Shown: one piece after another, positions 23,357 to 52,617 of the stretch
Layout of the letters: each line of letters opens with the position of its first letter
Position numbering within the stretch: the first letter of the stretch is position 1
Origin: an uncultured Planctomycetota bacterium
Lineage (GTDB): Bacteria > Planctomycetota > Planctomycetia > Isosphaerales > Isosphaeraceae
DNA length: 64,000 nt
Reading direction: 5' to 3'
NCBI GenBank assembly: GCA_963823665.1
Contig: CAWGMQ010000010.1
Location: 2,080,001 to 2,144,000, forward strand
Made by a program: the position numbers and the translations under genes
Notes under the pieces: model-generated
Seen by the model: the letters and a program-made list of their open reading frames with translations, nothing else
What the model was told of the DNA's origin: nothing
Database searches by the model: none

Positions 23357-23683
23357 GTTAGAGATTGGTACACCGAGCAGGAGAGGCTTCTAACGGACAT
23401 GAAGGTACGAATAGATCAACTCAGGAAGGCGATTCAGGATCCTGCGATGAGCAAAACAACACTACGAAAAATGCTCAGCGAATTCAATTTGGAATTGCTT
23501 CACGCAAACGCTGACTTGTTGCCCCAACAAACCCGCGCTTATTACACTCCGCAGCAGAAAGGAATGCTCGCGAGGACTCTCAAACGTGGACGGGCATTGC
23601 GACAATTGATCTCGAAAGTTAATACGATCAACAATTCCCCGGCAAATGTCCAGCCGCCAAAAAACGCGCCAGGCCCGACATGA
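23357..23683 (+). pseudogene. Headless low-GC ORF end, probably an orphan RHS C-terminal tip
   Basis: Open frame runs from the RAYT right end. Helical with a Pro-rich end (VQPPKNAPGPT) like both RHS tips in this window; visibly lower GC. Confidence 0.45.
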
Positions 23684-24155
23684 TTGATTTAGCGTGGCAT
23701 AGCGGTCAGGGCTCCCGTTCGGCAAAACCAGACAGTCCATCTGTGACGGACTGCGGAGGTGCGCGTCGGTCATTTGCCGAGCCGTCTGAAACGAATCGCT
23801 GGGCGTGCCAGTCCTCGAGAACCGCGCTCGTCGCTATACCGACGACCAGGTTAGCGCCCGCGGCCTGAGTTGCGCGGCCCCCCCGAGATTGCTCGCGTCG
23901 TTCGGTTCGAGTAGAATGAACAGGTGCGATATGGGCTTCGTTGCGACTTGCTGAGGAGTCCGGATTCCACGGTTCCGGTGCCACTTTCCGTGCCCGCCGC
24001 TGCCCAGTTCGCGCGAAGGCGGTCCCGGCATTCAATATCCAAATGTTCAGCGATCCACATGTCATTGGATGTGGCGTGCACATCTTCGTCTGCCCTGATT
24101 GGTTATGGGGCGGCGCCTTTAAGTGCCCTCGGTTTTATACGTGCGAGGCTCGAGC

Positions 24156-25334
24156 ATGAACCTTAAGGCGAGGCGGTTGCAGCTACGGTCGTGTGCTGGT
24201 CGCCCAGGCTCGCGGTGCCTCACTTTGCGTTTCAGCCTGCGCTTTTTTATTGTCTGCACGCTCCTCGTTGGTGTGCCATTAGGTTGGCTGCTCCGAGGAG
24301 CTCGAGGTCAGCAGCAGGCGGTTAATGCCATACAGTCAGGGGGGGGCGCCGTATATTACGAAAACAACTGGTGGAACTCGAGCTTCGGCTCGAGCGGGCG
24401 GGCTGGGTTTCTAGTAGATCTCGTGCACCGGCTGGGCCCCGACTTCGGCGCAAACGTGTGCTCGGTTCGGCTGAGGAATCCCAGCCCTAAGGCCTTCGCG
24501 TCCCTTGAGCGCCTTGGTCAACTCGAGCAACTGATAGTTTACCAATCGTCGAATGTCGATGCTGGGCTCAAGTATGTCGCTCCGTTGGCTCGCCTTTGCG
24601 ACGTTAGGCTTTACTACACGTCGGTTGGCGATGACGGCGTCGCGAGTTTGAGGGGGTTATCGAATCTTGTCAGGCTGGAGTTGGTAAGCGGGCGAGTAAC
24701 CGACTCAGGCTTAGCACATCTGATAGGATTGAGTAGTTTGAGGCAGTTGGAGTTACGCGCGCTCCCGATAACTGAAGGCGGATTGGCTCACGTTCAAGGC
24801 CTGACGAAGCTTGAGACACTTAAGCTCGAGGGCGTAGTTGTGACTGACGCGGGTCTCCGCTATTTAAGTCGCATGGCTAAGCTCGTGAAGGTGACTCTTC
24901 GGGAATCGGAGATTACGGACTCGGGACCTTCGACTCTGGCGCGGCTGACACAGCTTCAGGAGTTGGACATTGTTGGCCGTGGGGTAACTGACGTTGGTCT
25001 GGAGCGACTGAGGTCCCTCCGCAACCTCTCGTTCCTCGCCATTATCGACTCGCAGATTTCGGACGACGGGATGGGCGTTCTGGGTGTCCTTCCGAAACTT
25101 CAGGGGCTGGACCTGAGCGGAAGTCGTATTACTGATACTGGCGTGCTGAAGCTAAGTCGGCTCGGCAACCTCTCGTACCTTGCCTTGCGTGACACCGAGT
25201 TGTCGGACGCCGGCCTCCGACACCTGATTTCGTTGCGCAAGCTGCGGGTCCTATCTGTTGACGGGACGAGGATTTCCGCGGCTGGAATCAGGGAACTGGA
25301 ACGCTCCTCGCCTGGCATTGAAGTATTGCACTAG
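24156..25334 (+). CDS. Leucine-rich-repeat protein with RFSLR-type N-terminal membrane anchor
   Basis: LRFSLRFFIVCTLLVGVPLGWL followed by many LxxLxL..xTDxGL repeats. Confidence 0.92.
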   Translation: MNLKARRLQLRSCAGRPGSRCLTLRFSLRFFIVCTLLVGVPLGWLLRGARGQQQAVNAIQSGGGAVYYENNWWNSSFGSSGRAGFLVDLVHRLGPDFGANVCSVRLRNPSPKAFASLERLGQLEQLIVYQSSNVDAGLKYVAPLARLCDVRLYYTSVGDDGVASLRGLSNLVRLELVSGRVTDSGLAHLIGLSSLRQLELRALPITEGGLAHVQGLTKLETLKLEGVVVTDAGLRYLSRMAKLVKVTLRESEITDSGPSTLARLTQLQELDIVGRGVTDVGLERLRSLRNLSFLAIIDSQISDDGMGVLGVLPKLQGLDLSGSRITDTGVLKLSRLGNLSYLALRDTELSDAGLRHLISLRKLRVLSVDGTRISAAGIRELERSSPGIEVLH

Positions 25335-25774: not shown

Positions 25775-26196
25775 GGGATGGGAGACACCCACCGATCTCA
25801 TGTGAAGCTGGCATCGCGATCCGGATGCCGCCGCGGGGCTCGTCCCGAAGCAGCAGCGGCGGTGGCGGTCGTAGCTCCTGGTTAGCTCCGAGCAAATCGC
25901 ATTTGCTGTCGAGTTTTTTCTCAACACTCTTGACACCCGCGCCATTATTGGTGTTTTTGTCCATTACTGCTCTTGCGAATATGCCCGCTAACATACTGAA
26001 CCTGCCTGGTGATAGAGCTTTACGTGCCGGCCTCTGGGCGTCGCCAAATCGTCCACGAGGAATGCATTGGCGTTGTGCGAATGGGTTGTCCGAGCGACCA
26101 ATCGCGAGGAAAATTCTGCCGGCGGATTCCGGGCCGGCCGCTTCAAATCGCAGCCGCTTCTCGATGGGGCAGCGCTTCTGGCATGCAGCGTCTATG
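25775..26196 (+). mobile_element. RAYT element copy B: left end plus an internally deleted, truncated transposase remnant
   Basis: GGGATGGGAGACACCCA left REP and the conserved leader; IVHEECIGV is fused to CEWVVRATNREENSAGGFRAGRFKSQPLLD. Confidence 0.8.
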
Positions 26197-26329
26197 GAGT
26201 ATCGGCGCGATATGAAGACGGATTCCTCGGTGAAACCGAACGAGCGAGGGGGGCCAGGAATCTGGTAGGATGGCTGTGGTGAGGCCCGGTCCCGTTCCCA
26301 GCAGCGCGGCTCTCCGAGGAGGAGACACC

Positions 26330-26641
26330 ATGGCGGTTGATCAGATGATCCAAAAGGTCCAGGACGCCTTGAAGCTCGGTAAGGTGAAATCGAAGCTGCC
26401 GCGGAATCCCAAGTTCGTCGACATCCGCGTCGAGGACTACGTCGACTCGGACGGAGACGATGCGCTGCGGGTGACGATTGTCATCGACGAGAATGTGGAC
26501 GTCGAGAATGTGAGCGGTCAGGAAATCACGGACCTGAAGAGCGCCGTTCGCCGCCGGATTCGCGAGCTGGGCGTCGAGCTCTGGCCTTACATCCAGATCG
26601 CCAAACCGAGCGAGCTCGAACAGGGCGGCGACGAGGAATGA
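26330..26641 (+). CDS. Small acidic protein, nucleotidyltransferase-like partner of the HEPN gene
   Basis: EDYVDSDGDDALRVTIVID; GAGGAGG RBS; stop codon overlaps the HEPN start (ATGA). Confidence 0.65.
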   Translation: MAVDQMIQKVQDALKLGKVKSKLPRNPKFVDIRVEDYVDSDGDDALRVTIVIDENVDVENVSGQEITDLKSAVRRRIRELGVELWPYIQIAKPSELEQGGDEE

Positions 26642-26876
26642 GCTGTGTACAAGGATCTTCTGGAACAAGCCGTCCGGCTGGCGGAGCTCGATGCCAAGAA
26701 GCCGAAGTAGGCCAACCTTCGTCGTGCGATCTCGGCGGCCTATTACGCCCTTTTCCATATGCTGGTTGACGAAGCCTGCCGAGTCCAAGTCGGGGCACAG
26801 CACAACCAGGCACCGTACCGTCAGGTCCTGGGCCGTGCCTTTGCCCACACTGTGATGAAGGATGCCTGCAAGTGAT
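26638..26876 (+). pseudogene. HEPN-domain gene with a nonsense codon and truncation
   Basis: DLLEQAVRLA..KPK*ANLRRAISAAYYALFH, with in-frame TAG at 26708. Confidence 0.8.
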
Positions 26877-27685: not shown

Positions 27686-28030
27686 ATGAACTCTGATTCG
27701 AACGACAGCGACCGGCCGCCCCACGACGACGCCCAGAACGGCCGGCCGGGGAAACGCATGCTCTGGTACACCTGCGATGACGGAGGTGAAGGGGTCACGA
27801 CCTACACCTACGAGATCGGAGAGGAACCCTGGCAATTCGCCTTCACGCACGACGCGGCCAAGGGCGTGTATGTGCTGGCCAAGGCCGACGGCACTACCGA
27901 GCGATTCCGTGATAACCCGGCGCGGCACCTGGTGGTCGAGCAAGATCCCGTGACCGGTGAGATGCGGCCGGCCGTCAAGCGCGGCCAGCCAACTTATATC
28001 TACCTGTGCCGCGAGCAACGCGAGCCGTGA
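27686..28030 (+). CDS. Conserved 114-aa hypothetical protein, copy 1
   Basis: GGAGG RBS. A paralog of the same length lies at 40256..40600, with synonymous and conservative differences. Confidence 0.88.
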   Translation: MNSDSNDSDRPPHDDAQNGRPGKRMLWYTCDDGGEGVTTYTYEIGEEPWQFAFTHDAAKGVYVLAKADGTTERFRDNPARHLVVEQDPVTGEMRPAVKRGQPTYIYLCREQREP

Positions 28031-28075
28031 CAACGCTGGAAAATCGTGTTCAGGGCAGGCACCAACGGGGGTCGG

Positions 28076-28306
28076 ATGAGCCAATCGCCCGGGATCGTCG
28101 GCCGCTACCTTGACTTGATGCACGAGGTTCTCATCAAGGCGATCTATCAAGATCGGGCCGTTGACCCGTGGTCGCAGCCGGTCTTCGACGTTCGCAAACG
28201 CGACTTTGGTCTAGATTGGCCGCATCAGGCCTTTACGATGATCGGCCGCATACGCCTGCGATCGCTACGGGACTGCTGCGACCTTGTCTTGCGAGAGCGA
28301 ATCCCG
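28076..28306 (+). pseudogene. Truncated TylF/MycF-family O-methyltransferase (N-terminal part only)
   Basis: RYLDLM..GLDWPHQAFTMIGRIRLRSL..ERIP, ending just before the expected GDxxExGVWRG motif. Confidence 0.75.
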
Positions 28307-28369
28307 GCAGATGGCAGTCGGAGACCGTCCGCCGGTTTGAGGCGCATAAGCAGCGTCCCGAGCAGCGAG

Positions 28370-28582
28370 TTAGTGGGATTTCTTCAATAGGCCCGAATCG
28401 TCACCCGACAGCGCCCCAATCTCTGCGGCATGTGTCGTGCCGATGAGCCGCCCCTGGAACTGCCGCTGCCACTCGATGTAGTACGCAACCAGGCGCGTCG
28501 GATCATGGCCGACTCGCGCCGAGATCCGGTGGCGAACCTCCCGGACTTCCTCGATGACGGGATCACTCACTTCCGGATCCAT
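28370..28582 (-). CDS. Small putative antitoxin partner of the PIN protein
   Basis: DPVIEEVREVRHRISARVGHD; overlaps the end of the PIN gene. Confidence 0.7.
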   Translation of the reverse strand: MDPEVSDPVIEEVREVRHRISARVGHDPTRLVAYYIEWQRQFQGRLIGTTHAAEIGALSGDDSGLLKKSH

Positions 28583-29319: not shown

Positions 29320-32300
29320 ATGTCATCGCAACCGTCGTCTTCGAGCCGTGTTCTTTCTATGGGGTACGCTGAGTTCGCCCGCTGCTTTGGGCGGTTTGAG
29401 ATTGCCGGGGCACTTTGTGGCTACACGCCGCAAGTTGACACACATGCGGTGCTCACGCTGCTGGCGCATGCCAGGCCGCGTCGGCTTCTCGAGATTGGCA
29501 CTGCGCTGGGGCACATGACGGCAAATTTTAGCAGGTGGACTCTTGATGATGCGCAGATCTTCAGCCTGGGGACTCTCCAGGAGACTCGGAAGACTTCGCC
29601 CGGGGCGCGGGAGCAGCAGGTCGAGGAACCGGGGCGTGGCGAGTTCGGTCGGTTTGCTGACCAGTTCGGCAAGGCGTGGAAAGTGTTCTTCATCATCGCC
29701 GACTCGATGGTCTATGACTTCGGCCGGCTGGTGCCGCTCGATTTTGCGTTCATTGACGGGGGGCACGACCTCGAGCACGGGCTCAACGATAGTCGCAAGG
29801 CGTATCAGGCCCTTGACCATGGTGGCTGGCTTGTCTGGCATGACTTCGGCAGCCCGGTGCCGTGGGTCAAGGTGCGGGAGGCGATTGAGCGGGTGGGCTT
29901 TTCTGAACCGCTTGTGCATGTGGAGGGGACTCAGGTCGCGTTCCTGCGCAAGCAGGCACCGCTGCCATCGCCGCCGATGGAGCCTGTTCGTCGTGGCCCG
30001 GTGCGCGTGGCCTGGGAAGGAGACCCACAGGGGCTGCACTCGCTGGCACTCGTCAACCGAGCCCTTTGCGGGGCGCTGCTGGAGCGCGGGCACGATCTTG
30101 GGTTGATCTGGGATTCGAAGGCCGCCGAAGGGACGATGCCCATGCGGCCGCCTGATGCTCGCCTGGCTGAGCGGTTGGGCCATGGGCCGGTACACGGGCC
30201 GGCCCAGGTGCACGTGGGGCACCAGTGGCCGCCGCGGCTGGAGCCACCGCGGGATGGCCGCTGGGTGCTGATGCAGCCGTGGGAGTATGGGAGCCTGCCG
30301 AAAACCTGGCTGGGGGCTCTTCGGCACGTTCACGAGATCTGGGCTTACAGCCGATCGGTCCGCGATTGCTATCTCGAAGCCGGGGTCGCGCCTGAGCGCG
30401 TTCATGTTATACCGCTGGGCGTGCAGCCGGACGTATTCCGGCCTGGGCTTGAGCCACTGGCCTTGAAGCCAGGTCCGGATTTCCGGTTCCTTTTTGTCGG
30501 GGGGACGATTTTCCGCAAGGGAATCGATGTGCTCCTGGCGGCTTTCGCGCGGGCCTTTGAGCCTGGAGACAACGTCGGGCTGGTCATCAAGGACATGGGG
30601 ACGAAGAGCTTTTACCGCGGGCAGACGGCCGAGGCCAAGATTGCCGGATTGCGCGAGCGGGGATATTCGGTCGAGTACATTGAGCGGGATTTGGATGAGA
30701 GCGAAATCCCCAGGCTTTACGCGGCTTGTGATTGCCTTGTGCATCCGTTTCGTGGCGAGGGGTTTGGCTTGCCGGTCGTTGAGGCGATGGCGTGTGGGCT
30801 GCCGGTGATTGTTACCGGGGCGGGGCCAGTGTTGGATTATGCGAGTGAGGAGACGGCGTTTCTCATTCCCGCTCGACGCGGGAATTTCGCTGAGTTTCGA
30901 GTGGGGGATTTGGAGACGATCGGGCGGCCTTGGCTTTGGGAGCCGGATGGTGATGCGTTGGTTGACCAGTTACGAATGGTGGTGCGCGATCGGGCGGGTG
31001 CTGCGGCTAGAGGTGCCGCTGCGTCGGGTTGGATTCGCGAGCGGTTTACGTGGGCTCGTTCGGCCGAGGCGGTTGAGCGGCGGTTGCATGTGCTGGCCAC
31101 CGAACGAGATCGCAGCGAGGTCAACGGGGTACCGGCGCGGACCACAGGGCGAAGCCCGACGCAGCACGAACGCCTAGTTCCTGGGCCGCAACCAAACGAA
31201 CCCGTTCTGCTGACTCAGGTGACGTCATCGGTTGTCAGCACTACGCCAACCGCGCGCGCCAAAGTTAGCTTGACGATGATCGTGAGAGATGAACAGAAGA
31301 ATTTGGCGCAGTGCCTCGAGTCGGTGAAGGGACTATTCGACGAGACCATTGTCCTGGATACCGGCAGCAAGGATTGCACGGTTGAAATCGCCCGATCGTT
31401 CGGGGCGCGAGTGTTTGATTTCGTGTGGGTCGATGACTTTAGTGCGGCCCGCAATGCGGCACTGGCTCGTGCACGAGGCGATTATGCGTTCTGGCTTGAT
31501 GCGGATGATCTGATTGAGCCGCCCGAGCGCGCCAAGCTGGAGGAACTGTTCCGCCGGGTGAATTCCGCCGGAAAAGTGCCGGCGTTCGTGGTGCGGTGTG
31601 CATGCGATCCCGGGCCGGATGGAGAAGGCGGTGACACGGTTGTTGATCACATCCGGCTGTTTCCGCTGATTGAAGGTGTGCGGTGGACGTATCGCGTGCA
31701 CGAGCAGATCCTGCCCGCACTGAAGAGAGCTGGTGTGCCTGTGGAGTGGACTGACATCACCGTGCGGCACACGGGGTACTCTGACCGGGCACTCCGATTG
31801 AGAAAGCTTGAGCGGGATTATCGCATTTTGCGTGAAGAGCTGGTCGAGCGGCCGGACGATCCGTTCACGTTGTTCAACCTGGGATCGATTGCGATTGAAC
31901 GGGCCGAGTGGAATGAGGCGCTCGGGTATCACGAGCGCAGCCTGGCGGGCTCGGTACCGAGTGATTCGATTGTCCGTAAGCTGTATGCGCTGATTGCGCG
32001 GTCTTACCAGATGCTCCGGGATTATCCGGCGGCCCTGGCGAGCTGCGCCGAAGGGCTTTCGCTCGATGCCGAGGATGCCGAGTTGTGGTTCCGCAAGGCG
32101 GTGGTGCATCGGTGTGGTGGCGATTCGGCTGCGGCCGAGGAGTGCTGGCGGCGGATCTTGACGCTCTCGCGGCCCAAGAAGTTTGCCAGCTTGGATCAGG
32201 GGATTTATGGGCATCTGACGCGGCGGAATCTCGCGGCGCTGGCTCACGAACGGGGTGATGTTGAGGAGGCGCGGCGGCAGTGGCGGGCGGTGTTGGAGGA

Positions 32301-32352
32301 GTGCCCGGGGGACAGGGAGGCCACGGAAAAGCTGGCGCAGTGCCGGAAGTAG
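29320..32352 (+). CDS. Four-domain fusion: class I SAM methyltransferase + GT4 + SunS-like GT2 + TPR
   Basis: LLEIGTALG and FIDGGHD; FVGGTIFRKGIDVLL and EGFGLPVVEAMACG; SLTMIVRDE, DTGS, DFSAARN, LDADD; C-terminal TPR helices. Confidence 0.93.
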   Translation: MSSQPSSSSRVLSMGYAEFARCFGRFEIAGALCGYTPQVDTHAVLTLLAHARPRRLLEIGTALGHMTANFSRWTLDDAQIFSLGTLQETRKTSPGAREQQVEEPGRGEFGRFADQFGKAWKVFFIIADSMVYDFGRLVPLDFAFIDGGHDLEHGLNDSRKAYQALDHGGWLVWHDFGSPVPWVKVREAIERVGFSEPLVHVEGTQVAFLRKQAPLPSPPMEPVRRGPVRVAWEGDPQGLHSLALVNRALCGALLERGHDLGLIWDSKAAEGTMPMRPPDARLAERLGHGPVHGPAQVHVGHQWPPRLEPPRDGRWVLMQPWEYGSLPKTWLGALRHVHEIWAYSRSVRDCYLEAGVAPERVHVIPLGVQPDVFRPGLEPLALKPGPDFRFLFVGGTIFRKGIDVLLAAFARAFEPGDNVGLVIKDMGTKSFYRGQTAEAKIAGLRERGYSVEYIERDLDESEIPRLYAACDCLVHPFRGEGFGLPVVEAMACGLPVIVTGAGPVLDYASEETAFLIPARRGNFAEFRVGDLETIGRPWLWEPDGDALVDQLRMVVRDRAGAAARGAAASGWIRERFTWARSAEAVERRLHVLATERDRSEVNGVPARTTGRSPTQHERLVPGPQPNEPVLLTQVTSSVVSTTPTARAKVSLTMIVRDEQKNLAQCLESVKGLFDETIVLDTGSKDCTVEIARSFGARVFDFVWVDDFSAARNAALARARGDYAFWLDADDLIEPPERAKLEELFRRVNSAGKVPAFVVRCACDPGPDGEGGDTVVDHIRLFPLIEGVRWTYRVHEQILPALKRAGVPVEWTDITVRHTGYSDRALRLRKLERDYRILREELVERPDDPFTLFNLGSIAIERAEWNEALGYHERSLAGSVPSDSIVRKLYALIARSYQMLRDYPAALASCAEGLSLDAEDAELWFRKAVVHRCGGDSAAAEECWRRILTLSRPKKFASLDQGIYGHLTRRNLAALAHERGDVEEARRQWRAVLEECPGDREATEKLAQCRK

Positions 32353-32480: not shown

Positions 32481-33455
32481 ATGATCATTTCACAAACGCC
32501 TTACCGGGTCAGCTTCGCAGGAGGTGGGACTGACTTGCCGGTGTTCTATCGGCGGCAGTACGGGGCCGTACTCAGCACGGCGATCAATCATCACATTTAT
32601 GTCACCGTTCACCGGCGTTTTGAGCCATCCATCCGCGTCAGCTACTCACGCACCGAGGTCGCCGACACGCTGGACGAAGTTCAGCATGAGCTAGTGCGCG
32701 AAGCGATGCGCCTCGCCGAAATCGACGAACCACTCGAAATCACCACCATCGGCGACGTACCGGCCGGTACCGGCATGGGGTCCAGCAGCAGCCTCACCGT
32801 GGGACTTCTGGGTGCTCTCTACGGATTCTGCAACCGGGTTGTCAGCCCCAAGCTCCTGGCCGAGCAGGCGTCCCGCATCGAAATCAACGTTCTGGGCAAA
32901 CCGATCGGACGCCAGGACCAGTATGCGGCCGCCTTTGGCGGGCTGAACTACATCCGCTTTAACAAGGACGACACCGTCGACGTGGAGCCCGTGCCGTGCC
33001 GCGCGGAGACGCTCGAAGAGCTCGAGCGGCGGGCTCTACTCACCTATACCGGCCAGACTCGCGACGCCAGCACTATACTCGAGCGCCAATCCAGCATCAC
33101 TGAAGATCATATGGAGGTGCTGACGTCACTTCGCGATCTCGCCGACGAGATGCGAACCGCACTCGCCGGCGCCGGCGACCTTGATCATTTCGCGGAGCTT
33201 CTCCACCGAGGTTGGGAACTTAAGCGATCGCTGGGATGCGGGATCAGCAACCGCCAGATCGACGACTGGTACGCGGCCGCACGACGAGCGGGCGCCTGCG
33301 GCGGCAAACTGCTCGGGGCTGGCGGAGGTGGGTTTCTGCTGCTTATAGCACCACCCTGGCGGCACCGCGCTATCCGCGAAGCACTTGGACGACCGCGGGA
33401 GCTGCCGTTCAAACTCGCCCGGCACGGAAGCCGGTTGATCTTTATTCATGCTTGA
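32481..33455 (+). CDS. hddA: GHMP kinase, D-glycero-alpha-D-manno-heptose-7-phosphate kinase-like
   Basis: TPYRVSFAGGGTD, PAGTGMGSSS, IGRQDQYAAAFGG, GGKLLGAGGGG. Confidence 0.85.
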   Translation: MIISQTPYRVSFAGGGTDLPVFYRRQYGAVLSTAINHHIYVTVHRRFEPSIRVSYSRTEVADTLDEVQHELVREAMRLAEIDEPLEITTIGDVPAGTGMGSSSSLTVGLLGALYGFCNRVVSPKLLAEQASRIEINVLGKPIGRQDQYAAAFGGLNYIRFNKDDTVDVEPVPCRAETLEELERRALLTYTGQTRDASTILERQSSITEDHMEVLTSLRDLADEMRTALAGAGDLDHFAELLHRGWELKRSLGCGISNRQIDDWYAAARRAGACGGKLLGAGGGGFLLLIAPPWRHRAIREALGRPRELPFKLARHGSRLIFIHA

Positions 33456-33569: not shown

Positions 33570-34820
33570 ATGGCACATCGCTTACTCTTCGCTTCTATTC
33601 ACAGCTACCTCGACCCCTCCAGCGGGGCGGCTCTTGCGACGCGAGAGCTCCTCGAATTGCTGGCAGGGCGCGGATGGGACTGCCGAGCGTTCACTTGCGG
33701 CGTGCTTGACTATCAGAACGAGACGCCTATCGAGAATGTGCTCGCTTCAATCGAGCGGCCGGCTACGCGGTCGGGCACGGCGCTCAGCCTTGGTGGCCAG
33801 GCCGAGATCTTTGACCTACAAGTTGGTGGCGTGCGCGTCACACTGCTGCCCACGTCGTGCAGCCGCGCCGATAAGGCACCCAACCCGCGTGAGGGCGCCA
33901 TGTACATCGACCTCGCCGAGCAGGTGCTGGATCGATTCCGGCCTGAGATTCTGGTGACCTACGGCGGGCATCCGGTCAGCCGTTCTCTGATGCTGAAGGC
34001 CAGGGCCAAGGGTACTGCGGTCGTTTTTCACCTGCACAATTTCGGCTACAACGATCGGCGCGGATTCGAGGACGTCGATGCCATAATCTTCCCGTCAGAG
34101 TATTCACGCCGGCTCTACACGCGCCGGGTCGGTATCGACGGCGTTGTCATTCCTGACCCGATTCGGCTCGAGAAGGTGATCGCCGAGAACCCCGAGCCGC
34201 AATACGTGACGTTCATCAACCCCCAGCCTGAAAAGGGAGCGGCCGTCTTTGCGCGGATTGCGCTCGAGCTCGGTCGACGGCGGCCGGATATCCCGCTCCT
34301 AGTCGTCGAAGGCCGAGGTACCGCTGACGGCCTCGCGGGGTTGCCCGTCGATCTCTCGGGGCTGACGAACCTGCACCGGATGGCGAACACGCCCGATCCG
34401 CGCGATTTCTACCGGGTCAGCCGGGTGGTGCTGATGCCATCCCTCTGGCGGGAGTCGCTCGGCCGCGTGCCGATCGAGGCGATGGCGAATGGCATTCCAG
34501 TACTGGCCAGCGATCGCGGAGCGCTACCCGAGACCCTGGGCGATGCCGGGTTCGTGTTCACGATCCCTGATCGGTGCACACCAGCCAGCAGCGTGGTGCC
34601 AACCGCGCAGGAAGTGGCTCCCTGGGTGGCCGTGATCGAGCGACTGTGGGACGATGCGGAATTCGAGGCCGAGCACCGGAGACGGGCGCTGGCTGAGGCG
34701 AAGCGCTGGGATGTGGACAGGTTGGCCGAACAATACGAGGCTTTCTTCCGCTCATTATGCCAAAGCGAAGTAAAGCGCGCCACCACGCACGCGGTGCGAA
34801 ATATAGTCGTTGGCAATTAG
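33570..34820 (+). CDS. GT4-family glycosyltransferase
   Basis: FINPQPEKG; PSLWRESLGRVPIEAMANGIPVLASDRGALPE. Confidence 0.93.
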   Translation: MAHRLLFASIHSYLDPSSGAALATRELLELLAGRGWDCRAFTCGVLDYQNETPIENVLASIERPATRSGTALSLGGQAEIFDLQVGGVRVTLLPTSCSRADKAPNPREGAMYIDLAEQVLDRFRPEILVTYGGHPVSRSLMLKARAKGTAVVFHLHNFGYNDRRGFEDVDAIIFPSEYSRRLYTRRVGIDGVVIPDPIRLEKVIAENPEPQYVTFINPQPEKGAAVFARIALELGRRRPDIPLLVVEGRGTADGLAGLPVDLSGLTNLHRMANTPDPRDFYRVSRVVLMPSLWRESLGRVPIEAMANGIPVLASDRGALPETLGDAGFVFTIPDRCTPASSVVPTAQEVAPWVAVIERLWDDAEFEAEHRRRALAEAKRWDVDRLAEQYEAFFRSLCQSEVKRATTHAVRNIVVGN

Positions 34821-34894: not shown

Positions 34895-35635
34895 TTAGAT
34901 TTCCACGAAGGGACCATCTCCCTTCGGATGTCCGCACCCCCGGACCCCGTACCCGGGCTTGGAATAGTGGAAATGGACGGCGGGATCGAGAAATCGGCCT
35001 TCGATCATCAGGTCGGCCTTCACGAAGAAGGCATTCACGCCCCGTGAGTCGGTGGCGACCAGTGAGTATCCCTTCTTGCGCCCGAGACGAGCGAGCGAAG
35101 CAAGGCTGGCACCATAATAGCTCGTCCCATCCCAAGTGTGTTCATGGTTTTCCACCATGACCCACAGCCGTGGCGGAGGGAAGCTCGCGTTGTACTCGAT
35201 CACGACGATCCGGGGATGCCAGTTCTGGATGGCCGCCCAGACCCAGTAGTCGTTGCCGTCGATGTCGATCGAGAGCAGGTCAAACTCTTGGGGGATGTGA
35301 TTCCCGGAAAGGATCTGCTCGATGTTGTCCGAACTCACGCGGGCGCGAATGCACCGAATGCGATCATCTCCGGCGTACGTGCGGCTGAGCCCGTCGAACT
35401 TCGCGCTATTCCCTTCGATGAAGAGGGCGCCCCATCCTTCCTTCAAGGCCAGGCGCGCGCAGTTACATTCGAGGCCGGTTTCGGCCCCGAACTCCACGAA
35501 GAGACCCGTCTTGATACCGACCCTCCGGAGGATCTCCTCGATGATGCCATCTTCGCCATTCTGCGAGTAGACGCGGCGCTCGTGTGCGCGCAGGTCCCCC
35601 GCCACGTCCCGTGCCGCGAAATCGCTATGACCCAT
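34895..35635 (-). CDS. FkbM-like methyltransferase associated with glycan loci
   Basis: YSQNGEDGII, FVEFGA, LSIDIDGNDYWVW, PRIVVIEYN; GAGGAGG RBS. Confidence 0.85.
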   Translation of the reverse strand: MGHSDFAARDVAGDLRAHERRVYSQNGEDGIIEEILRRVGIKTGLFVEFGAETGLECNCARLALKEGWGALFIEGNSAKFDGLSRTYAGDDRIRCIRARVSSDNIEQILSGNHIPQEFDLLSIDIDGNDYWVWAAIQNWHPRIVVIEYNASFPPPRLWVMVENHEHTWDGTSYYGASLASLARLGRKKGYSLVATDSRGVNAFFVKADLMIEGRFLDPAVHFHYSKPGYGVRGCGHPKGDGPFVEI

Positions 35636-39914: not shown

Positions 39915-40065
39915 CGGCAAAGAGAGAGGAAGAACCGCTCGTACTGTTCGGTCAGCCGCTGCCCATCCCAGCGCTTCGCCTCCGCCAGCCCTTTTCCGGT
40001 GCTCTGCCTCGAATACCGGATCGTCCGACAGCCGCTCAATCACGGCCACCCAGGGCGCCACTTCC
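39915..40065 (-). pseudogene. 3' fragment of a GT4 paralog of 33570..34820
   Basis: EVAPWVAVIERLSDDPVFEAEHR..EAKRWD..EQYERFF aligns with ~34610-34760. Confidence 0.85.
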
Positions 40066-40255: not shown

Positions 40256-40600
40256 TCACGGCTCGCGTTGCTCGCGGCACAGGTAGATATAAGTCGGCTG
40301 GCCGCGCTTGATGGCTGGCCGCAACTCGCCGGTCACGGGATCTTGCTCGACCACCAGGTGCCGCGCCGGGTTATCACGGAATCGCTCGGTAGTGCCGTCG
40401 GCCTTGGCCAGGACGTAAACGCCCGCAGTCGCGTCGTGCGTGAAGGTGAATTGCCAGGGTTCCTCTCCGACCTCGTAGGTGTAGGTCGTGAGCCCTTCAC
40501 CTCCGTCATCGCAGGTGTACCAGAGCATGCGTCTCCCCGGCCGGCCGGTCTGGTCGGCGTCGTGTGGCGTTCGGTCGCTGTCAGGGGAATCAGAATTCAT
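40256..40600 (-). CDS. Conserved 114-aa hypothetical protein, copy 2
   Basis: MLWYTCDDGGEG..FRDNPARHLVVEQDPVTGE..PTYIYLCREQREP and the leader CCCTTTGGAGGAACAACCATG are shared with copy 1. Confidence 0.88.
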   Translation of the reverse strand: MNSDSPDSDRTPHDADQTGRPGRRMLWYTCDDGGEGLTTYTYEVGEEPWQFTFTHDATAGVYVLAKADGTTERFRDNPARHLVVEQDPVTGELRPAIKRGQPTYIYLCREQREP

Positions 40601-42150: not shown

Positions 42151-42219
42151 ACAGGTTCGCGCCGTTCGCGTCTCGGAAGCAATCGTAAAGCGACTCGGCC
42201 CGTCCGCCGTCCTCGGAGG

Positions 42220-45029: not shown

Positions 45030-45420
45030 CTACATGACGATGATCGGCCGCTCGTGCTCAATTGCCACCGCACAAAGTTCCAGCAGGCATTCAAACAGGT
45101 TCGCGCCGTTCGCGTCTCGGAAGCAATCGTAAAGCGACTCGGCGGTTCCGCCTTCCTTGGAGGTGCCGTTGAGGCCTTCTCCGTTCCTTGCAGGTGGCAA
45201 CTCGCGAAACGCGGCTGCGATCTCTTGAAGCTGCCGCCCGAACGGCCCGACGTCGTTCGGTGACCATTCCAATGTGGTCGTGCAGCCGCTTGCGTGGTGG
45301 AAGCGTTCTTGAGCGCACTTGCAAAGCGACCCGGCTACCGTGCGCGCTTCCGCGACGCGTTGAAAAGCGCCCTTCATCCGTTCCGATGGCAGCTCCCGAA
45401 ATGCGGCCGCGATCTCGCTT
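45030..45420 (-). pseudogene. Degenerate tandem fragments of an unknown gene (EIAAAFRELP..SLYDCF..NLFECLLELC); further 3' fragments at ~42086-42215 and ~41485-41550
   Basis: EIAAAFRELP is encoded twice within 45030-45420. DNA at 45040-45145 matches 42097-42200. Confidence 0.55.
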
Positions 45421-45561: not shown

Positions 45562-46074
45562 TCACTCCAAGCCTAGAGACTTCGCTGCTTCCCGCATCTC
45601 CATCGTCACCGGGTCTTGCGCGAAGGGAAACCAGATCTGATCCGCAGCGTCTTCAAACTGTCGCCTTACGTCGGAATACCGCTGGGCAGCAGCCTTGGCT
45701 TGATCTGCAGCCTCGAGATAAATTCGCCGGTCTCTCAGTTCGATGGTGTAGAAGCGGCTCCGAAGGGAAGATCGCCGCAGCCTGGCAGGATCTCTCTGCA
45801 CCGTCGGGGAACGCTTGCCCTCGGTACGCTCCGCAGCCATTTGCGCTGATAGATGCTCGAGAGACTGTGCTACGCGGTCGGCCGTCGCCCGGTAGAACGA
45901 CTCGTTTGCGATCTCAAGCTTCTCGAGCGTAGCCAATTGCGAGGCTCGTTTTCGACAGGATGATTGCACTTGCTTGAACCTGAAGGCATCGACGAGCGTT
46001 CCGAACGCGACGGCGATCAGGGCCACCGCCGTCATGAGCTGGAGCACCGTAAGCCTCAAGCGTGCTGACCGCAT
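45562..46074 (-). CDS. Membrane-anchored helical protein downstream of RHS1
   Basis: RLRLTVLQLMTAVALIAVAFG anchor (RFSLR-like), a helical body, and a WFPFAQDP end. Confidence 0.75.
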   Translation of the reverse strand: MRSARLRLTVLQLMTAVALIAVAFGTLVDAFRFKQVQSSCRKRASQLATLEKLEIANESFYRATADRVAQSLEHLSAQMAAERTEGKRSPTVQRDPARLRRSSLRSRFYTIELRDRRIYLEAADQAKAAAQRYSDVRRQFEDAADQIWFPFAQDPVTMEMREAAKSLGLE

Positions 46075-46718: not shown

Positions 46719-49700
46719 CTAGATGGGCGGCGGAACAACCGGGCGCGGTGGGACTCCGTACTCTTGAATCACTTTGTCCAGGTCTTCCAAGATTTCAATA
46801 ATTGTCCGTGCAGAATCCTTCTTGTCCTGTACATCCTTTATTTCCGCAGCCAACCTGGCCAGCAGTTTCGGGTTTGTTGTTTCTTTGCTTTTTTGAACAA
46901 GCCAATTTAGGTCCTCGGTCATCTCCCCATTAACTGTGGTAATTGCATCGATTAAGTCAAGAATTAGCTGTTCTGTGACCTTGTTTGGTTCCCCTGGAAT
47001 CACCATGAGATCATCCATCTGCGGATCTGCCGGAACAACCATTTCGGGATCAGCGAGCAAGTTCGGTGGAGTCAGATTGAGGAGGGAGTTGCCCTCCGGA
47101 CCGAAGAGGTCCACGGGCAAGTCGGGAAGCTGTTCAGGCGCCGGCTGCTGGCTCGCGCTCGCAGTACTCGAGGGCGCGGCGACCACGGAACCGCCAAGGG
47201 CCAAGGCAGGTCCGACCGTGGTGCCTACGGTCACGCCTGCGCCAGATAATAGGACACTGGCAGGTCCGATCACATCTGGCGCGTTGCCCGAAACGTCCCT
47301 CTCGTCCGGCGGGTCGTTCCCAACGTAATTGAAGAGATTCGTTGTGCTGGACGTGAACAAGGCTGGGTCGAGACTTGTGAAGCGGCCAAGCTCCTCGTCG
47401 TAAGCCCTCGCCCGATCGTAATATCGTCCGGTTGTTGAATCATACTCCATCCCCGCAAACTTGAACCGATCCCCGTTGCTCGCGTTGGTCTCGGTCGTGA
47501 TGTTGCCGAAGCTGTCATACACCACGTGATCGAGCACCGAGCCAGCCGAACTCACCACGTCGCGAACCGAATCCAGCTTGTCGGTCAAGTACCACGCTGT
47601 CGTTCCCCCCGAGCTTGTTCGCGCGAGCAACTCGTCCACGACCGCGCCGTTGACCATCCCCGGGCCGGAGACGTAGCGCGTGAGCAGTGCGCCACCAGAG
47701 CCGTTGAAATCAGCGTAAGGGAAGGAATTCGCGCTCGTGCCGTTGTAAATAGTCCAGGTCGTCGAGCCGCCGGAATCCTGGATCCCGATCCGTTGGTCCA
47801 GAGCGTTATACGTGTACGTCGCAATCAGAGTCCCGCCCTGTTTCACTTCCGTCAAACGATTGCGATAATCGTACGTGTAGGTGGTGTACGTGCCACCGCT
47901 GTCCGCGCTTGTCATATTGCCCGCGCTATCATAGGTGTACGTGACCACGCCCGGCGAGGTCAGCGTCTCATTCATCACTGTCGTTGAGTACCCAGTCCCG
48001 GTTCTGCTCCCGTTGGCATCGTACGCGTAGGACTCGACCTGAGCTCCGCCCTTATATACGCTCGTGAGTTCATTGCCGTTGTCGTATGTATAAGTATATG
48101 TTCCCTCTGCATCCACCAAAGTTGTCACTCGGTTCGCATTGTCGTAGCTGTACACGTACGTAGCGAGCGCCGAGCCGCCCGAAACGTAATCCGTGATTGT
48201 CGTCTGCCTGTCAGCAGCGTCATAACCGTATGAGGTATTCACAGCGGTGCCACTGCCGCCGATCGTGCGCAATTGCGCAGAGATTTGGTTATTGGGCGCA
48301 TACGCCGTTACGATCTCCGGGCCGGACGTGCCGTTGTACGACGTCGTGATCGTGGTCAGCCGCTGGCCTGCGTCATACAAGTATGTCGTGATCCCAACAT
48401 TGCCCGAGACGTTGTCGGTTACGCTTGCCAGGTTGTTCTGCGGATTATACGTGGAGGTCAGCGTCACGCTCGGCTGGCCGGTTCCCGGGCCGGAAGTCGC
48501 CGAGGTGAGCTCATTGCCGCCCGAGTCATATGTAAACGTCAAGGTGGCATAGGCATCGTCGGCTCCGGTGAGCTCGATTATCGGCGTCGTACGTGTACGT
48601 AATTTTCTCGGCAGGCGATGCGCCAACCCAGGTTTCACCAGTCTGGTCCCCATCCGCATCGTAGGAATAGGTCGTGCGCCGGCCGTTCGCATCGGTCGTA
48701 TCCGTGAGCTCACCGTCATTGTCGTAGACGTAGGTCACCGTGGCGGAATTGGGCAAGGTCTCGGTCGTGACCCGATCGTCTGAATCGTAGGCCCACTGGG
48801 TTTTGTTGCCGTCCGGATCGGTCAAACTGATCTCCCGCCCGGCGGCGTCGTAGGCAATTACTGTCGTCCCGCCCGAGACGGGGCTGGTGATCGTCGTCGC
48901 CCTGTTCAGCGCGTCGTATTGAGTGGTCGTCGTATGGCTCAATCCGTCCGTCACCGTGATTTGATTGCCGCCCGAGTAGCCGTAGACGGTGGTGTCTCCC
49001 GAGATCGGAGTCGTGACCGTGGTCAGACGGTTCATCGAATCGTACGCATACGACGTTGTGTTATTATTGGCGTCGGTGACGGCGATCTGATTGCCAACCC
49101 CATCGAGCGTGATCGTCGTGGTATTCGAGTTGGCGTCAGTTTCTGCAATCAGCCGATCGTCCTTATCGTAAACGAACGAAACCACGGTGCCGCCACCGCT
49201 GCTCGCGGGATCCGATTCCGTCGATTCCCGTCCCGTGGCCGTGTACGAGTATGTTGTGGTGTTCCCCAGGGGGTCGGTCGAAGTGGCCACCCAGCCCCGA
49301 TTATCATACGTCGTGGTCGTGATCCGGTTCATTGCGTCATCAACCTGGATCACCTCCGAATCACCATCATAGGTCGTCGTGGTCCGGTTGCCGTTCAGCG
49401 GATCGATCACCACCGTTGGCCGGTCGAGCGCGTCGAAGACCGTGGTCGTGACGCGCCCCATCGGGTCTTTCACCGTCACCTGGTTGCCGTCCGAATCGTA
49501 TCCGTAGATAGTCTGCAAGTCCAATGGATCGGTCACGGTGGTGAGCCGGTTCATCGAATCATAGGCATAGGTGGTGGTGCGCGCCGTCCCGCCGCTCGGC
49601 GTCGGCTCCTGGTCCTTGGTCAGATTGCCTCCCGAATCGTAGGTCAGCGTCGTGATGTCGTTCAGCGCGTCGGTCGAGCCAGTCTCTCTATTCATCGCAT

Positions 49701-52617
49701 CGAACGAGTAGGTGGTCGCATTCCCCGCGCTATCGACTGACTTGATCACATTGCCTTGTGAATTAAAGGATTGGAGGTTTGTTGTCCCGTCAGGCAGTTG
49801 CACCGTCGTCAAGCGGTCCTGGCTATCGTATAGATAGGTCGTGGTATGATTATTCGCGTCAGTAAATGTGCTGAGCTGGCCGGTCGATGTGTAGGTCATC
49901 GTGGTCAGGTTCGTCAGCGCATCCTCGACGACGGTGAGGTTCCCGGAGCTGTACGTGTAGCTCGTCGTGTTCCCATCAGCGTTGGTGAACGTGAGCGGCT
50001 CGGCATCGCTGTTGTAGGTGTAGTTTTCCTCGTTTGTATCTTCGTAGATAATGCTGACCACGTTGCCCTTGGAGTCATAGCCAAACTGCGTATTCCGATT
50101 AACCTGGTCCACGGTCACGGTCGCCAGGCCGTTGGAATTCCTGTCGAAGAGCTGATCGTTGCCCAGGGGATCGATGATGTTGCCGGGCAACCCCATGCCC
50201 ATCCAGTCGGGCTGAATGGTCGTCGTGTTGCTATTCGGGCTCGTGTACGTGCTGCCCGCCACGGCGAGCAGTGTACTCGGAGCCGGGCTGCCCGACGTGC
50301 CGCTGTTCGTCCAGCCTGCCTCCTGGTCGTTGGTAAAGTCCTCGGTTGTGCTATCTGGCCGGTTCACCGAGCTTACACGCCCACCAGAATCGTAGTTTAT
50401 GGTGGCGGTGTGCGAAAGCGGGTCGGTTATCTGAGTCAGTTTTCCACCCGACGCGTAGCTATAGCCCCAGGTGCTGGCGTCTGGCAATTCCGCCTGGGTC
50501 AGGTTTCCACCAGAATGAGTGAGCGTGGTGAAGCGCGAGGCTGGGTCTTCGATGCTCTGGAGATAGCCACCGCTGTACGTGAAGGTTGTGAACTTGCCGA
50601 GGTAATCTTCGATCGTGGTCAGGTTGCCGCCGCTGTAGGAGAACGTGGTGTGATTTCCGTTCAAGTCGATGATGGCCGTCTCCGAGCCGCCGGAATTGAA
50701 CTTGATTTGCGTGCCATCGGTCAGGGTGCGAGTCCATCCACCCCCCGAATTGCTGACCAGCGTCGAGAACTCACCGGCGGGGTCGGTATAAGTGCCGCCG
50801 CCGCTGCCGCCGGTGGCAAACCACAGCGAGCGGCCGTTGTCGCCCAGATCAAGAATCACACCGCCTGTTGCAGACGTGATCTGCTCCAAACCCTGCAACG
50901 TCCAGCCAGCGCCAAATTCGTTGCTCGAGTAGTTGAGCAGATTCGTCTCGCCACTGTATGTCAAAGTCGCCACCCCCGACCCGATATCCACCACCTGCGC
51001 CGAGTAGGTGTACCGGCCGGTGCTCAGCGAGGTCGCATTGGTCGCCTGGAGGTTGATCTGCTGCACGTCTCCCGTGTTCAGCGTACTCGTACTGGTGGAG
51101 GTGTTGTAGTAATAGGTCGTGAGCGGCGTGCTGCCGTTGAAGGTGAGCTGGGCGCTCACCTGGCTCGGCACCGTGGCAGGAATCGTGTTCTCGACCGTCA
51201 CGATGGGCTCCGGTTGCGCCGTCAGCGAATCATACGTCAATGCGAGTGCGGGCACATTCGGGTTGTAGCTCGGCAGGTCAATCTCGGTGTCGAGCGACCC
51301 ACTGTTCGCATCGACCGACGCGTTGTCACTTGGAAATGAGGGCGAAGACAGAAGCTGCTGGCTCGGCGCCAGCGAGGTCGCCCAGGAGGCATTCGTGCCG
51401 CCGCCCGATGGGCCGCTAACCGGCCCTCCCGGCGGCATCCAAAAATCGTACGTGTACGTCAGGGTTTGTAAGGAAGTATCCGTCACCGAAAGAGTCACCG
51501 AGGTGGAATGACCGTACCCAGCCTCGTTGGTGTTGTCCCACCGGAAGTTGAGCTGGTCGGTGCTGGTGCCGGAGATGGAAGTTGCTGGCAAGCCACTTGT
51601 GTTCCAACTGTACGTCGATACAGTAGCGCCAGAAACCTGCGCGATCAAATCCACCCAGCCGTCGAGCGTGGCGAGCTGTTCGACACCCGGCTGCAACACG
51701 ACGCCGGATTGATTATCCAGCACATAAAGCCCAAAGGGAGCCGAAACGCCCGGTGTGAAGCCGGCGTAGTTGCCGGTCACCGGGTCCGGTGTCGAACCTG
51801 GAGGCGGAGTGCTCCCACCCGATGGAGTCGAACCCGGGTCGGTAGCCGGGCTGAGCGTGACGCCACCGCCGCCGCCCTGGTTGCTCTCGCCGGAAGCAGC
51901 GCCGGCTCCGGCGTGGACGAGCGAGATCTTCGCAACCGGCGGAGCGCCGCCCGTGCCGGGTGATGCGATCTGAGTGCCGGCGCCGCTGGCGCCCGCAACA
52001 GCCGCCAACAATGCGGCCGAAGCGCCACCACCGGCGCTCGCGGCCGGAGTGGATGCAGGTAATCGCAACGGCGTGATGGCACCGCGCGCGGCGTTCTGCG
52101 TTCCGCGCGATGCGCTCGCTCCACCGCGCGGTGCCTGCGCCGGCCCGCCACCTGGTCCCTTGGCTGCATGCCACGGCTTCGAGATTCCCTGGTCGACCGC
52201 CGGCTTGGCGCTCAATGTGAGCCAATTGTTCGAAGCTTCACTGCTGGAGCGGCGCCCGACCGCGCCGGACGCTTCAGCCGCAGAGGAACCACCCGTCCCC
52301 GCGATCTGACCAATAGCGAGCGCGTCAATCGACCTCAGCAGCTTGGCTGGAAGTGCGTACGGCTTCCTGCTGGATCCGCCCGCCTTCTTTACCGCGTCCT
52401 TGGCTGCCGTAAGCATGTTGAGTGCGCGATTCGCGCCATCGGGATACATGAACCCAAGCGCGATCAAGTTGCGGAGGGCGTTCGTCGCCACCCCCACAAG
52501 GCTGATGGGTTCGGTGATCTGCGTCCTCGACTCAAGCCGGTCCAGGCGATCCACATTCCGGCGAAGCATCCGGCGGCGGCGTTCGGTATATCCGATGTGC
52601 AGGCGGAAGAGACCCAT
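46719..52617 (-). CDS. RHS/YD-repeat protein RHS1 (~1,965 aa) with an LESR-type N-terminal motif; one frameshift near 48576
   Basis: ORFs 48526..52647 and 46719..48719 join at YDADN|ELTGA. YD repeats; core YDSFG..FAGMEYD..RAYD..GRFTSLDP..YVGNDP..DVSG; GGGAG RBS. Confidence 0.93.

Follow-up and report, generated by a model that had tools for sequence, protein, structure and literature searches.

Why does one stretch of planctomycete DNA carry genes for RHS proteins on one strand, a run of glycosyltransferase genes on the other, and a gene for the same 114-amino-acid protein beside each? We analysed 64,000 nucleotides from an uncultured member of the Isosphaeraceae (the window). Our answer, which we hold with slightly better than even confidence, is that the window contains two oppositely oriented and complementarily decayed copies of a Planctomycetia-wide RHS cassette, whose soluble glycosyltransferases likely add sugars to the RHS polypeptide while it is still in the cytoplasm, ahead of its export. 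Few bacterial weapons are as common as RHS proteins, and in the papers that we searched, we saw no sign of a glycosylated RHS protein or of an RHS modification cassette.

The earlier note described a mirror-image module, and the genes that it named are all where it placed them: the anchored LRR protein, both 114-aa genes, the TylF remnant, the methyltransferase-GT4-GT2-TPR fusion, the kinase, the stand-alone GT4 and its scrap, RHS1, and the helical protein. Two paralogous copies are indeed present, but there was no local inversion; the arrangement reflects copies that decayed separately, plus copies of insertion elements. The plus-strand arm retains its transferases and has no RHS core; the minus-strand arm retains RHS1 and has lost its transferases. 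In a nucleotide comparison within the window, homology between the arms was limited to the 114-aa gene, a 152-bp scrap of the GT4 gene, and copies of a REP/Y1-type transposon (22020..23356 on the plus strand, with further copies at 25775-26196, 42217-44020, and 53444-54659), which is also present elsewhere. Most of the apparent symmetry comes from these transposon copies, and we do not consider the mirror image to be a meaningful architecture. When we compared the LRR protein of the plus arm to the helical anchored protein of the minus arm, we found no similarity.

The two copies of the 114-aa gene (27686..28030 on the plus strand and 40256..40600 on the minus strand) are 91.6% identical at the nucleotide level. 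The genome contains 8 copies of this family. (Some of our counts for this genome rest on the matches listed in genome-wide search tables and should be read as "at least.") The dS between the window's two copies is 0.166, versus 0.09-0.10 for the C5/C8 and C8/C3 pairs, so the window's copies are not each other's closest paralogs. This implies that they are two members of the 8-copy family, and we rejected a local inverted duplication.

RHS1 (46719..52617, minus strand) is a clade-A RHS/YD protein, as judged from Pfam's RHS_repeat, TIGR03696, and a phylogenetic tree. (The tree left out three rows, which were a duplicate and two internal repeat matches, as well as bodies under 230 aa.) Read as a single gene, RHS1 encodes about 1970 aa, which comprise an Arg-rich N-terminal motif of a planctomycete type, a linker rich in Pro/Gly/Ala/Ser/Thr, a YD shell, the core, and a tip of approximately 185 aa. 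The N-terminal motif is common to 14 ORFs of the loci that we fetched. RHS1 carries a one-base frameshift near 48576. In run X2, one contig with identity over 268 letters does not have the extra base, so the break in the reading frame is likely an assembly error. RHS2 (58662..63488, minus strand) is a tandem clade-A paralog that matches RHS1 at 84% of nucleotides across 3.7 kb and has a different tip. Its 5' part was lost at an IS66 remnant (identified by an IS66 match), and we found no RHS N-terminus for it in the next 20 kb. Neither tip had a credible match in Pfam or NCBIfam.

We consider these RHS proteins to be putative antibacterial toxins. They have a YD-repeat shell and an RHS-associated core that ends in a DPxG-type motif, and variable C-terminal tips are found on near-identical cores, followed by immunity-type genes. 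Across the loci, the genes that come after RHS tips include Imm70, LRR, and ankyrin genes. In the window, the slot after RHS1 is occupied by an ORF for a membrane-anchored helical protein (45562..46074, minus strand), whose position suggests an immunity role; it had no match in Pfam or NCBIfam. Beyond it is the remnant of an Imm70 immunity gene (45030..45377, minus strand), which is 79% identical to the Imm70 gene of the C8 cassette. The anchored LRR protein of the plus arm (24156..25334, plus strand; identified with Pfam) is a possible immunity protein, and LRR genes come after RHS tips in the G014, G042, and G062 loci. We rejected it as an RHS-specific partner, since it is one of 60 matches in this genome, mostly far from RHS genes. 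We found no match to the T6SS sheath protein TssC in this genome (G000, 92% complete) or in two of four relatives (G029 and G095), and residues 1-472 of RHS1 had no family match, so RHS1 does not show the PAAR or VgrG N-terminus of T6SS-delivered Rhs proteins.

On the plus arm, the 114-aa gene is followed by the remnant of a TylF-type O-methyltransferase (28076..28390, plus strand, Pfam), which is cut by a PIN toxin-antitoxin-type pair and is intact in the C3 and C8 copies. Next is a fusion of a methyltransferase (MT24), GT4, GT2, and TPRs (29359..32352, plus strand, Pfam). The conserved core enzyme of the cassette corresponds to the GT2-TPR portion, and H147-E148-Q149 is invariant in 28 homologs. 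The stand-alone GT4 (33570..34820, plus strand, Pfam) is a frequent second enzyme of the cassette, and a 3' scrap of it (39916..40065, minus strand, 82.9% identity to 34610-34761) is the sole remnant of the minus arm's transferases. An FkbM-type methyltransferase (34895..35635, minus strand, Pfam) also occurs inside the G029:C2 cassette. Other loci differ in their modules, with Fringe-like, sialyltransferase/cytidylyltransferase, and radical-SAM genes. Our annotation of loci kept to the genome set, since most of the metagenome contigs are short and several loci on further genome contigs repeat ones in that set.

Between the fusion and the stand-alone GT4 is an optional GHMP sugar kinase that is HddA-like (32481..33455, plus strand), from which a heptose-containing glycan had been proposed. 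The kinase is found at just 3 of 52 loci and scores 160.5 bits against a family cut-off of 600, and we rejected heptose as a core feature on these grounds. Also, none of the partner genes for GDP-heptose (GmhA, GmhB, or HddC) were among the flanking proteins that we scanned.

Do these transferases accompany RHS genes beyond the window? Of the 85 GT2-TPR loci in ten Isosphaeraceae genomes, 32 are downstream of an RHS core of the same orientation, by 15 kb or less (0.76 expected), versus 2 upstream and 3 on the opposite strand; for 48, there is no RHS core within 15 kb, whichever way it points. Among 16 genomes from four other families, 18 of 23 GT2-TPR loci, from 14 of the genomes, are within 20 kb of an RHS core (0.52 expected). 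The transferase can be downstream of, upstream of, or head-to-head with the RHS gene, so the coupling survives rearrangement. RHS and the glycosyltransferase are the sole families that are common to all 12 of the other-family loci that we fetched. Thus, the coupling is real, and it is wider than the earlier note claimed, as it spans five planctomycete families. Near-complete genomes with an intact RHS-GT2-TPR locus include G014, G107, G109, G210, G615, and G624.

The coupling also depends on the type of RHS protein. A close GT2-TPR is found downstream of 28 of 41 clade-A RHS genes (the other 13 have no close GT within 15 kb) versus 8 of 109 other RHS genes, and the close and distant types of GT2-TPR sort by RHS clade. 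Across genomes, where kin are not independent, the GT is present in 42 of 57 with clade-A-like RHS and in 20 of 64 without; 15 of the 57 have no GT match at E <= 1e-50. Of the GT2-TPR regions without an RHS core, we examined 21: only 6 contain RHS scraps or tips, and there was no other recurring secreted protein that might be the substrate. We also scanned 337 flanking proteins (145+117+41+34) with Pfam. No Wzx, Wzy, initiating transferase, flippase, polymerase, or ABC exporter was among the matches listed. With RHS linkage above expectation and no Wzx/Wzy among these matches, the earlier note's inference that the set of transferases belongs with RHS genes, and not with LPS or EPS synthesis, passed the test that the note had set for it. 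The note's argument for glycosylation from the Ser/Thr richness of RHS proteins does not hold up: the S+T content of linked RHS cores (mostly 21-28%) overlaps that of unlinked ones (21-27%), which are equally rich, and we discarded this measure as a discriminator.

Glycosylation would likely be cytoplasmic and stepwise, with the RHS polypeptide as the substrate. The GmaR/SunS-like GT2-TPR would grip the RHS chain via its TPRs and place the first sugar on Ser/Thr residues of exposed parts (the low-complexity linker, the N-terminal domains, and the outer face of the shell). The glycan would then be lengthened by interchangeable modules (GT4, GT2, and others) and capped by methyltransferases. It would thus be specific to each locus and would protect or disguise the carrier after export. 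In the window, RHS1 would be modified in trans by the intact enzymes of the plus arm, its own transferases having been deleted.

The closest solved relative of the core enzyme is Listeria GmaR (PDB 22ao, E=5.7e-23), which adds O-GlcNAc to flagellin. Both are a soluble GT2 plus TPRs. The flagellin gene was absent from all five of the genomes that we tested (controls were positive), so we rejected flagellin as the substrate. As described in parts of PMC12645811, GmaR-type glycosylation is cytoplasmic and stepwise and acts on a genetically linked exported protein, which is what we propose for RHS; also, lipid-independent glycosylation is cytoplasmic, and its enzymes are often closely linked to the genes for their substrates. 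Unlike in the GmaR system, the gene that is linked here encodes an RHS toxin, and the enzyme occurs in fusions with GT4, GT2, and methyltransferase modules, which vary.

Our loci also resemble those for glycosylated adhesins. In those systems (serine-rich repeat proteins with accessory-Sec GTs, HMW1/HMW1C, and AIDA/Aah), a large exported protein is encoded with its own cytoplasmic glycosyltransferases. That arrangement is shared, as is the variation of the glycan between loci, but the enzymes belong to other families, the proposed substrate is a toxin container, and there are no recurring accessory secretion genes. Among RHS/YD polymorphic toxin loci, parts of Zhang et al. 2012 (PMC3482391) likewise describe a conserved core, variable tips, and tandem orphan modules, with Imm70, LRR, ankyrin, and Hint neighbours. 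In those parts, glycosyltransferases appear only as toxin tips, whereas here they form a separate maturation cassette.

The coupling of RHS to GT2-TPR in five families leads to a direct and testable prediction of a new class of glycoproteins. It also offers a substrate for the many unassigned giant multi-domain glycosyltransferases of Planctomycetia, and it suggests that bacterial competition may have a second variable layer, formed by glycans.

Alternatively, the enzymes might mature the cargo: the short tip or Cys-rich end would receive an O- or S-linked glycan, as a glycocin does, before being packed into the shell, with the IscU-like protein handling the cysteines. We consider this unlikely. 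The linked tips are short (mostly 66-245 aa, versus 570-1640 aa for most unlinked RHS of this genome), and the second-nearest solved enzyme is SunS (E=1e-17). The SunS/ThuS glycocin S-glycosyltransferases (TIGR04195) share the GT2-TPR layout, a DxD-type motif, and the HEQ motif, but the window's GT2-TPR scores 71.3 bits, versus an equivalog cut-off of 350. Some of the appeal of this idea comes from a second subtype of the cassette, in which Cys-rich clade-B tips (4-13 Cys each) are paired with a degenerate IscU-like gene; 17 of 28 such genes come after an RHS within 10 kb (0.22 expected). Its product scores below all four of the family cut-offs. Of the Cys positions that we scored, which we take to be the IscU ligands, the first is substituted and the other two are largely retained (7 sequences), which leaves the three-ligand set incomplete. 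Against maturation of the cargo, there is almost no sequence in common between the tips (BLAST paired none of 19), they are poor in Ser/Thr (mostly 3-17%), and many clade-A tips lack Cys. Also, glycocins carry a single sugar, unlike the products of elongation by multiple GTs with methyl capping. Around the 52 loci, considering ORFs of about 75 aa or more, we found no recurring family for a glycocin-type short leader-core precursor with a peptidase-ABC exporter.

It is likewise unlikely that the glycan instead marks some other component (a surface protein or the toxin's receptor), either to label self or kin or to confer resistance, and must travel with the toxin gene. This would fit with the high modular diversity of the GT and tailoring domains among loci and with the frequent survival of intact transferases where the RHS has been deleted (the window's plus arm is an example). 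But no export gene, flippase, or membrane-anchored transferase was among the matches listed for the loci; the slot after the tips is already filled by ordinary immunity genes (Imm70, ankyrin, LRR, or DUF4279); and the type of GT tracks the clade of the RHS core, not the tip.

Hitch-hiking, in which the transferases would have nothing to do with RHS genes beyond a common mobile island or common insertion hot spots, is disfavoured and seems very unlikely. IS elements and toxin-antitoxin inserts abound in the loci, and an RHS core is missing from over half of the GT loci, yet the strand and side asymmetry is strong (32:2:3), adjacency is retained through three gene orders in five families, GT type matches RHS clade, and no such recurrence is seen for other genes of the islands.

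This returns us to the 114-aa protein, whose disordered N-terminus precedes a small beta-hairpin domain; copy 1 has GGAGGA upstream. The dN/dS of its core is about 0.2-0.7, and the core's AF2 model has a pLDDT of about 95. When we searched the PDB with the family profile, the only matches were three Rhs cores (E=0.011-0.038). PF05593 (RHS_repeat) matches 17 of 150 family members (best E=1.7e-5); the window's own copy alone has no such match. Conversely, the family profile scores RHS ORFs at up to 16.6 bits, versus 1.5 for reversed ORFs. Fold searches gave nothing above background: Foldseek had no match at E <= 0.001, and the best Z was about 3.1, to assorted beta-propeller blades. From these profile matches, the protein appears to be an RHS-derived, free-standing YD-repeat "mini-RHS" that is family-restricted and dispensable. 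The earlier note's view of it as a dedicated accessory factor is right insofar as the protein goes with the system, being encoded at 43 of 52 loci, and its gene often lies between the RHS and transferase genes; but it is dispensable, and is itself RHS-derived. It is present in 24 of 121 family genomes, versus 62 of 121 for the GT, and was absent from the 12 other-family loci that we fetched. The idea that it is the glycosylated product (a glyco-RiPP-like precursor), with a secondary link to RHS, is most improbable: its gene is usually placed at the head of the transferases, in many cases within 0.3-2 kb of them, and its N-terminus is rich in Ser/Pro/Asp, but the gene is found in 0 of 400 other genomes of the phylum that we searched, most GT-bearing family genomes lack it while keeping the GT-RHS adjacency, and there is no protease or exporter nearby.

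The mini-RHS is probably a substrate mimic or an adaptor. It and the degenerate IscU are two newly defined accessory families. We can extend our proposal, though this is doubtful: the locus-specific glycan on the RHS container might be a second polymorphic layer (for targeting, kin recognition, or shielding), with the mini-RHS guiding or tuning the enzymes and, in the second subtype, the rewired IscU processing Cys-rich cargo.

Finally, 23357..23683 (plus strand) is the 3' end of a gene that was truncated by a transposon, and begins exactly where the transposon ends. It looks to be coding, with an open frame of 108 codons, which is equalled in 84 of 2000 shuffles. We found no homolog in this genome, among 19 local RHS tips, or among longer proteins, where the search is weak evidence. 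Its GC content is 0.49, versus 0.47 for the last 100 codons of RHS1, and it is possibly an RHS tip.

RHS cores and GT2-TPR, the conserved core glycosyltransferase of the cassette, recur together far beyond the window, and the RHS-glycosyltransferase system is real and class-wide. The earlier note proposed to test whether RHS-core genes are enriched near homologs of the 114-aa protein and of the GT4; near GT2-TPR, RHS cores are indeed enriched. We compared coordinates genome-wide in ten of the 24 Isosphaeraceae genomes that carry the 114-aa gene, which avoids selecting loci through that small gene. These genomes contain 85 GT2-TPR loci. A co-oriented RHS core precedes 32 of them at a distance of at most 15 kb, where 0.76 would be expected; another 2 sit upstream of a core, 3 have one on the other strand, and the remaining 48 have none within that distance. 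Outside this family, GT2-TPR homologs are present in 50 of 284 genomes from the class. In the 16 best-assembled of these carriers, which represent four other families, 18 of 23 GT2-TPR loci have an RHS core no more than 20 kb away, against 0.52 expected; in both comparisons the genomes are kin and not independent, which overstates the significance of the linkage. In the other families, the glycosyltransferase is mostly upstream of RHS, and RHS and the glycosyltransferase are the sole families common to all 12 loci (which were chosen for known adjacency). Head-to-head and glycosyltransferase-first orders also occur in near-complete Isosphaeraceae genomes, where RHS was found in 8 of 12 regions (6 were picked for having RHS) and the 114-aa gene in none of the 12. 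Shared insertion hot spots would hardly explain an adjacency that persists in five families and under three different gene orders.

We also examined 21 of the regions with GT2-TPR and no RHS core. Four contain internal RHS scraps, one contains a CdiA-type tip, one contains the start of a clade-B RHS (see below), and the remaining 15 have no recognisable RHS trace. Among genomes with clade-A-like RHS, 15 of 57 have no glycosyltransferase match. Both observations weigh against RHS glycosylation by these enzymes; the loci without RHS and the genomes without the transferase may be due to enzymes working in trans or to gradual decay. At another locus of the source genome (G000:C4:2534464-2547391), a sister-clade RHS has three GT2-TPR genes around it, on the strand opposite to its own.

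The family profile of the 114-aa protein matched 24 of 121 Isosphaeraceae genomes and 0 of 400 other genomes from the phylum (11 candidates scored in each). Across 52 loci around 114-aa genes, some of them on short contigs, same-strand RHS sequence is upstream in 29, GT2-TPR is downstream in 32, and 20 have both. RHS, GT2-TPR, or an IscU-like gene is present at 43 of the 52, which ties the small protein to this system; the kinase (3/52) and TylF (5/52) are rare. When flanking ORFs were clustered, RHS and glycosyltransferases dominated the recurring families, besides mobile genes, the IscU-like gene, and LRRs. In three genomes, ECF sigma factor genes are just upstream of cassette-linked RHS (L091:12319-12978, L074:2550-3173, and L080:18898-19452).

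Within the window, all of the genes that the earlier note named are present, but its mirror-image module stands only as two paralogous cassettes in opposite orientation. Self-comparison of the window gave three kinds of inverted homology: the 114-aa gene (27686-28030 and 40256-40600; 91.6% identity over 403 nt), the 3' end of the GT4 (33570-34820 and the scrap at 39916-40065; 152 bp, 82.9%), and a REP/Y1-type transposon (so labeled from a weak match to NF047646), whose copies account for most of the seeming symmetry. The anchored partners, an LRR protein (24156-25334) and a helical protein (46074-45562), are unrelated. The 16.5 Mb source genome (92% complete) has eight copies of the 114-aa gene, and the two in the window are not the closest pair, hence our reading of the mirror as paralogous cassettes. 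The - arm contains RHS1 (52617-46719), an immunity-slot gene, an Imm70 remnant, the small gene, and, of the GT4, only the scrap; the + arm contains the small gene and intact transferases, without an RHS core. With 60 matches of its family in this genome, the anchored LRR cannot prove that the + arm derives from an RHS locus. The orphan-tip candidate (23357-23683) appears to be what the transposon left of a genuine gene, namely its 3' end; homolog searches with this fragment found none. A one-base frameshift interrupts RHS1 near 48576 and is probably an assembly error, because one short contig from sequencing run X2 (depth 3) does not have the extra base and matches at all other positions over 268 letters. 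RHS2 (58662..63488, - strand) is a 5'-truncated tandem paralog of RHS1 with a different tip.

The window also contains local tandem duplications at 41132-42152 (418 bp at 97%) and 44521-44975 (234 bp at 93%), together with Imm70 scraps in three places (41483, 42086, and 45030). A pair of putative nucleotidyltransferase-like and HEPN-like genes (E = 0.027 for the HEPN match of the intact copy) is broken in the window (26330-26875, + strand) and occupies the same place after the transposon in the cassette on contig C3 (L017:1864-2706).

The solved sequences nearest to GT2-TPR are GmaR and SunS; GT2-TPR is not a SunS equivalog. It occupies the C-terminus of fusion proteins and stays constant there, joined to partners that vary (GT2, GT4, or methyltransferase modules), as in the window's methyltransferase-GT4-GT2-TPR (29359-32352). 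Cassette neighbours include Fringe-like, sialyltransferase/cytidylyltransferase, and radical-SAM genes. The LPS/EPS locus that the earlier note raised as an alternative was not borne out: no flippase, polymerase, or ABC exporter was among the matches listed (top five per protein) for 337 flanking proteins, with 145 of 163 candidates in the downstream set. No flagellin was found in the 5 genomes searched; a search for a T6SS sheath gene in 5 genomes found it in only 2, and not in the source genome.

We lean, at little better than an even chance, towards cassette enzymes that would modify RHS in the cytoplasm, adding sugars to the polypeptide one step at a time ahead of its export. This would work like known substrate-linked cytoplasmic protein glycosylation, except that the likely substrate is a toxin container. 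It is unlikely that the enzymes glycosylate the cargo instead, and marginally less likely still that another component receives the glycan, as a label for kinship or resistance. That the transferases hitch-hike with RHS genes is quite improbable, given how the coupling survives changes of gene order and recurs across families.

In a tree of 49 RHS cores, in which sequences from other genomes were selected via the 114-aa gene, linked RHS split into clade A (support 99/96; includes RHS1 and RHS2) and clade B (100/99). Another large clade, made up of source-genome RHS most of which have long tips, is never cassette-linked. A close GT2-TPR is downstream of 28/41 clade-A RHS versus 8/109 other RHS. 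Clade-A proteins share an Arg-rich N-terminal motif, without a match to any family model, followed by a Pro/Gly/Ala-rich linker with ~17% Ser/Thr. The motif resembles the planctomycete LEPR-XLL export motif. Ser/Thr richness, which had been taken as a mark of modified RHS, does not set linked RHS apart from other RHS. An unlinked RHS of the source genome (C5, near 1015920) has a 737-aa tip that ends in ~16 tandem Asp-rich, Cys-containing repeats.

In clade B, the tips are rich in Cys, and an IscU-like gene that lacks the first Cys accompanies the RHS. These IscU-like genes lie within 10 kb after an RHS in 17/28 cases (0.22 expected), never after a clade-A RHS, and ahead of a distant-type GT2-TPR in 12/28; in two loci from another family, the gene is between GT2-TPR and RHS. 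The degenerate IscU/NifU-like gene has 46 matches in 19 of 121 Isosphaeraceae genomes, and examples tightly linked to RHS with Cys-rich tips are L059:2669-3052, L020:19324-19704, L133, and L187:10826-11203. Two loci encode repeated ~110-aa Cys/Pro-rich proteins between GT2-TPR and RHS (L184:1528-2294 and 11606-11938; L194:6928-7260), beside RHS with Cys-rich N-termini; these small proteins are possible substrates for S-glycosylation.

The 114-aa gene is under purifying selection (core dN 0.04-0.06, dS 0.08-0.25). Its product has a confidently predicted beta-hairpin core, and structural comparison gave no match. Against 177,635 PDB sequences, the family profile hit only three Rhs cores (E = 0.011-0.038); its best score was 16.6 bits for RHS ORFs and 1.5 bits for the same ORFs reversed, and 17 of 150 family members match RHS_repeat. 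These similarities identify it as a predicted free-standing mini-RHS, and we infer that it acts as a mimic or adaptor. That it is itself the substrate is very improbable.

The system is apparently undescribed so far. We found no description of such a cassette in the literature searched (main texts, mostly outside subscription journals; such loci may be listed in the neighbourhood tables of PMC3482391 and PMC8195603). In the text seen of PMC3482391, glycosyltransferases occur as toxin tips only; the portions seen of bioRxiv 10.1101/2024.02.26.582050 do not mention "glycosyl", and those of PMC8195603 describe GT4 conflict effectors and do not mention RHS. The sources also included PMC12645811 and PMC12419801.

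Between the arms, 36851-39016 (- strand) encodes a 721-aa protein that looks like a conflict-system effector, with a C-terminal domain from the purine-nucleoside-phosphorylase superfamily and an N-terminal half without assignment. Immediately after RHS2 is a large WD40 protein (54754-58205, - strand) whose tail is split by a frameshift; the tail has no family match and is probably caspase-like, judged by a motif. A very large gene for a Gly/Thr-rich exoprotein with a transglutaminase-like domain (1-11193, - strand) runs through several frames and contains an internal direct duplication of 1571 bp.
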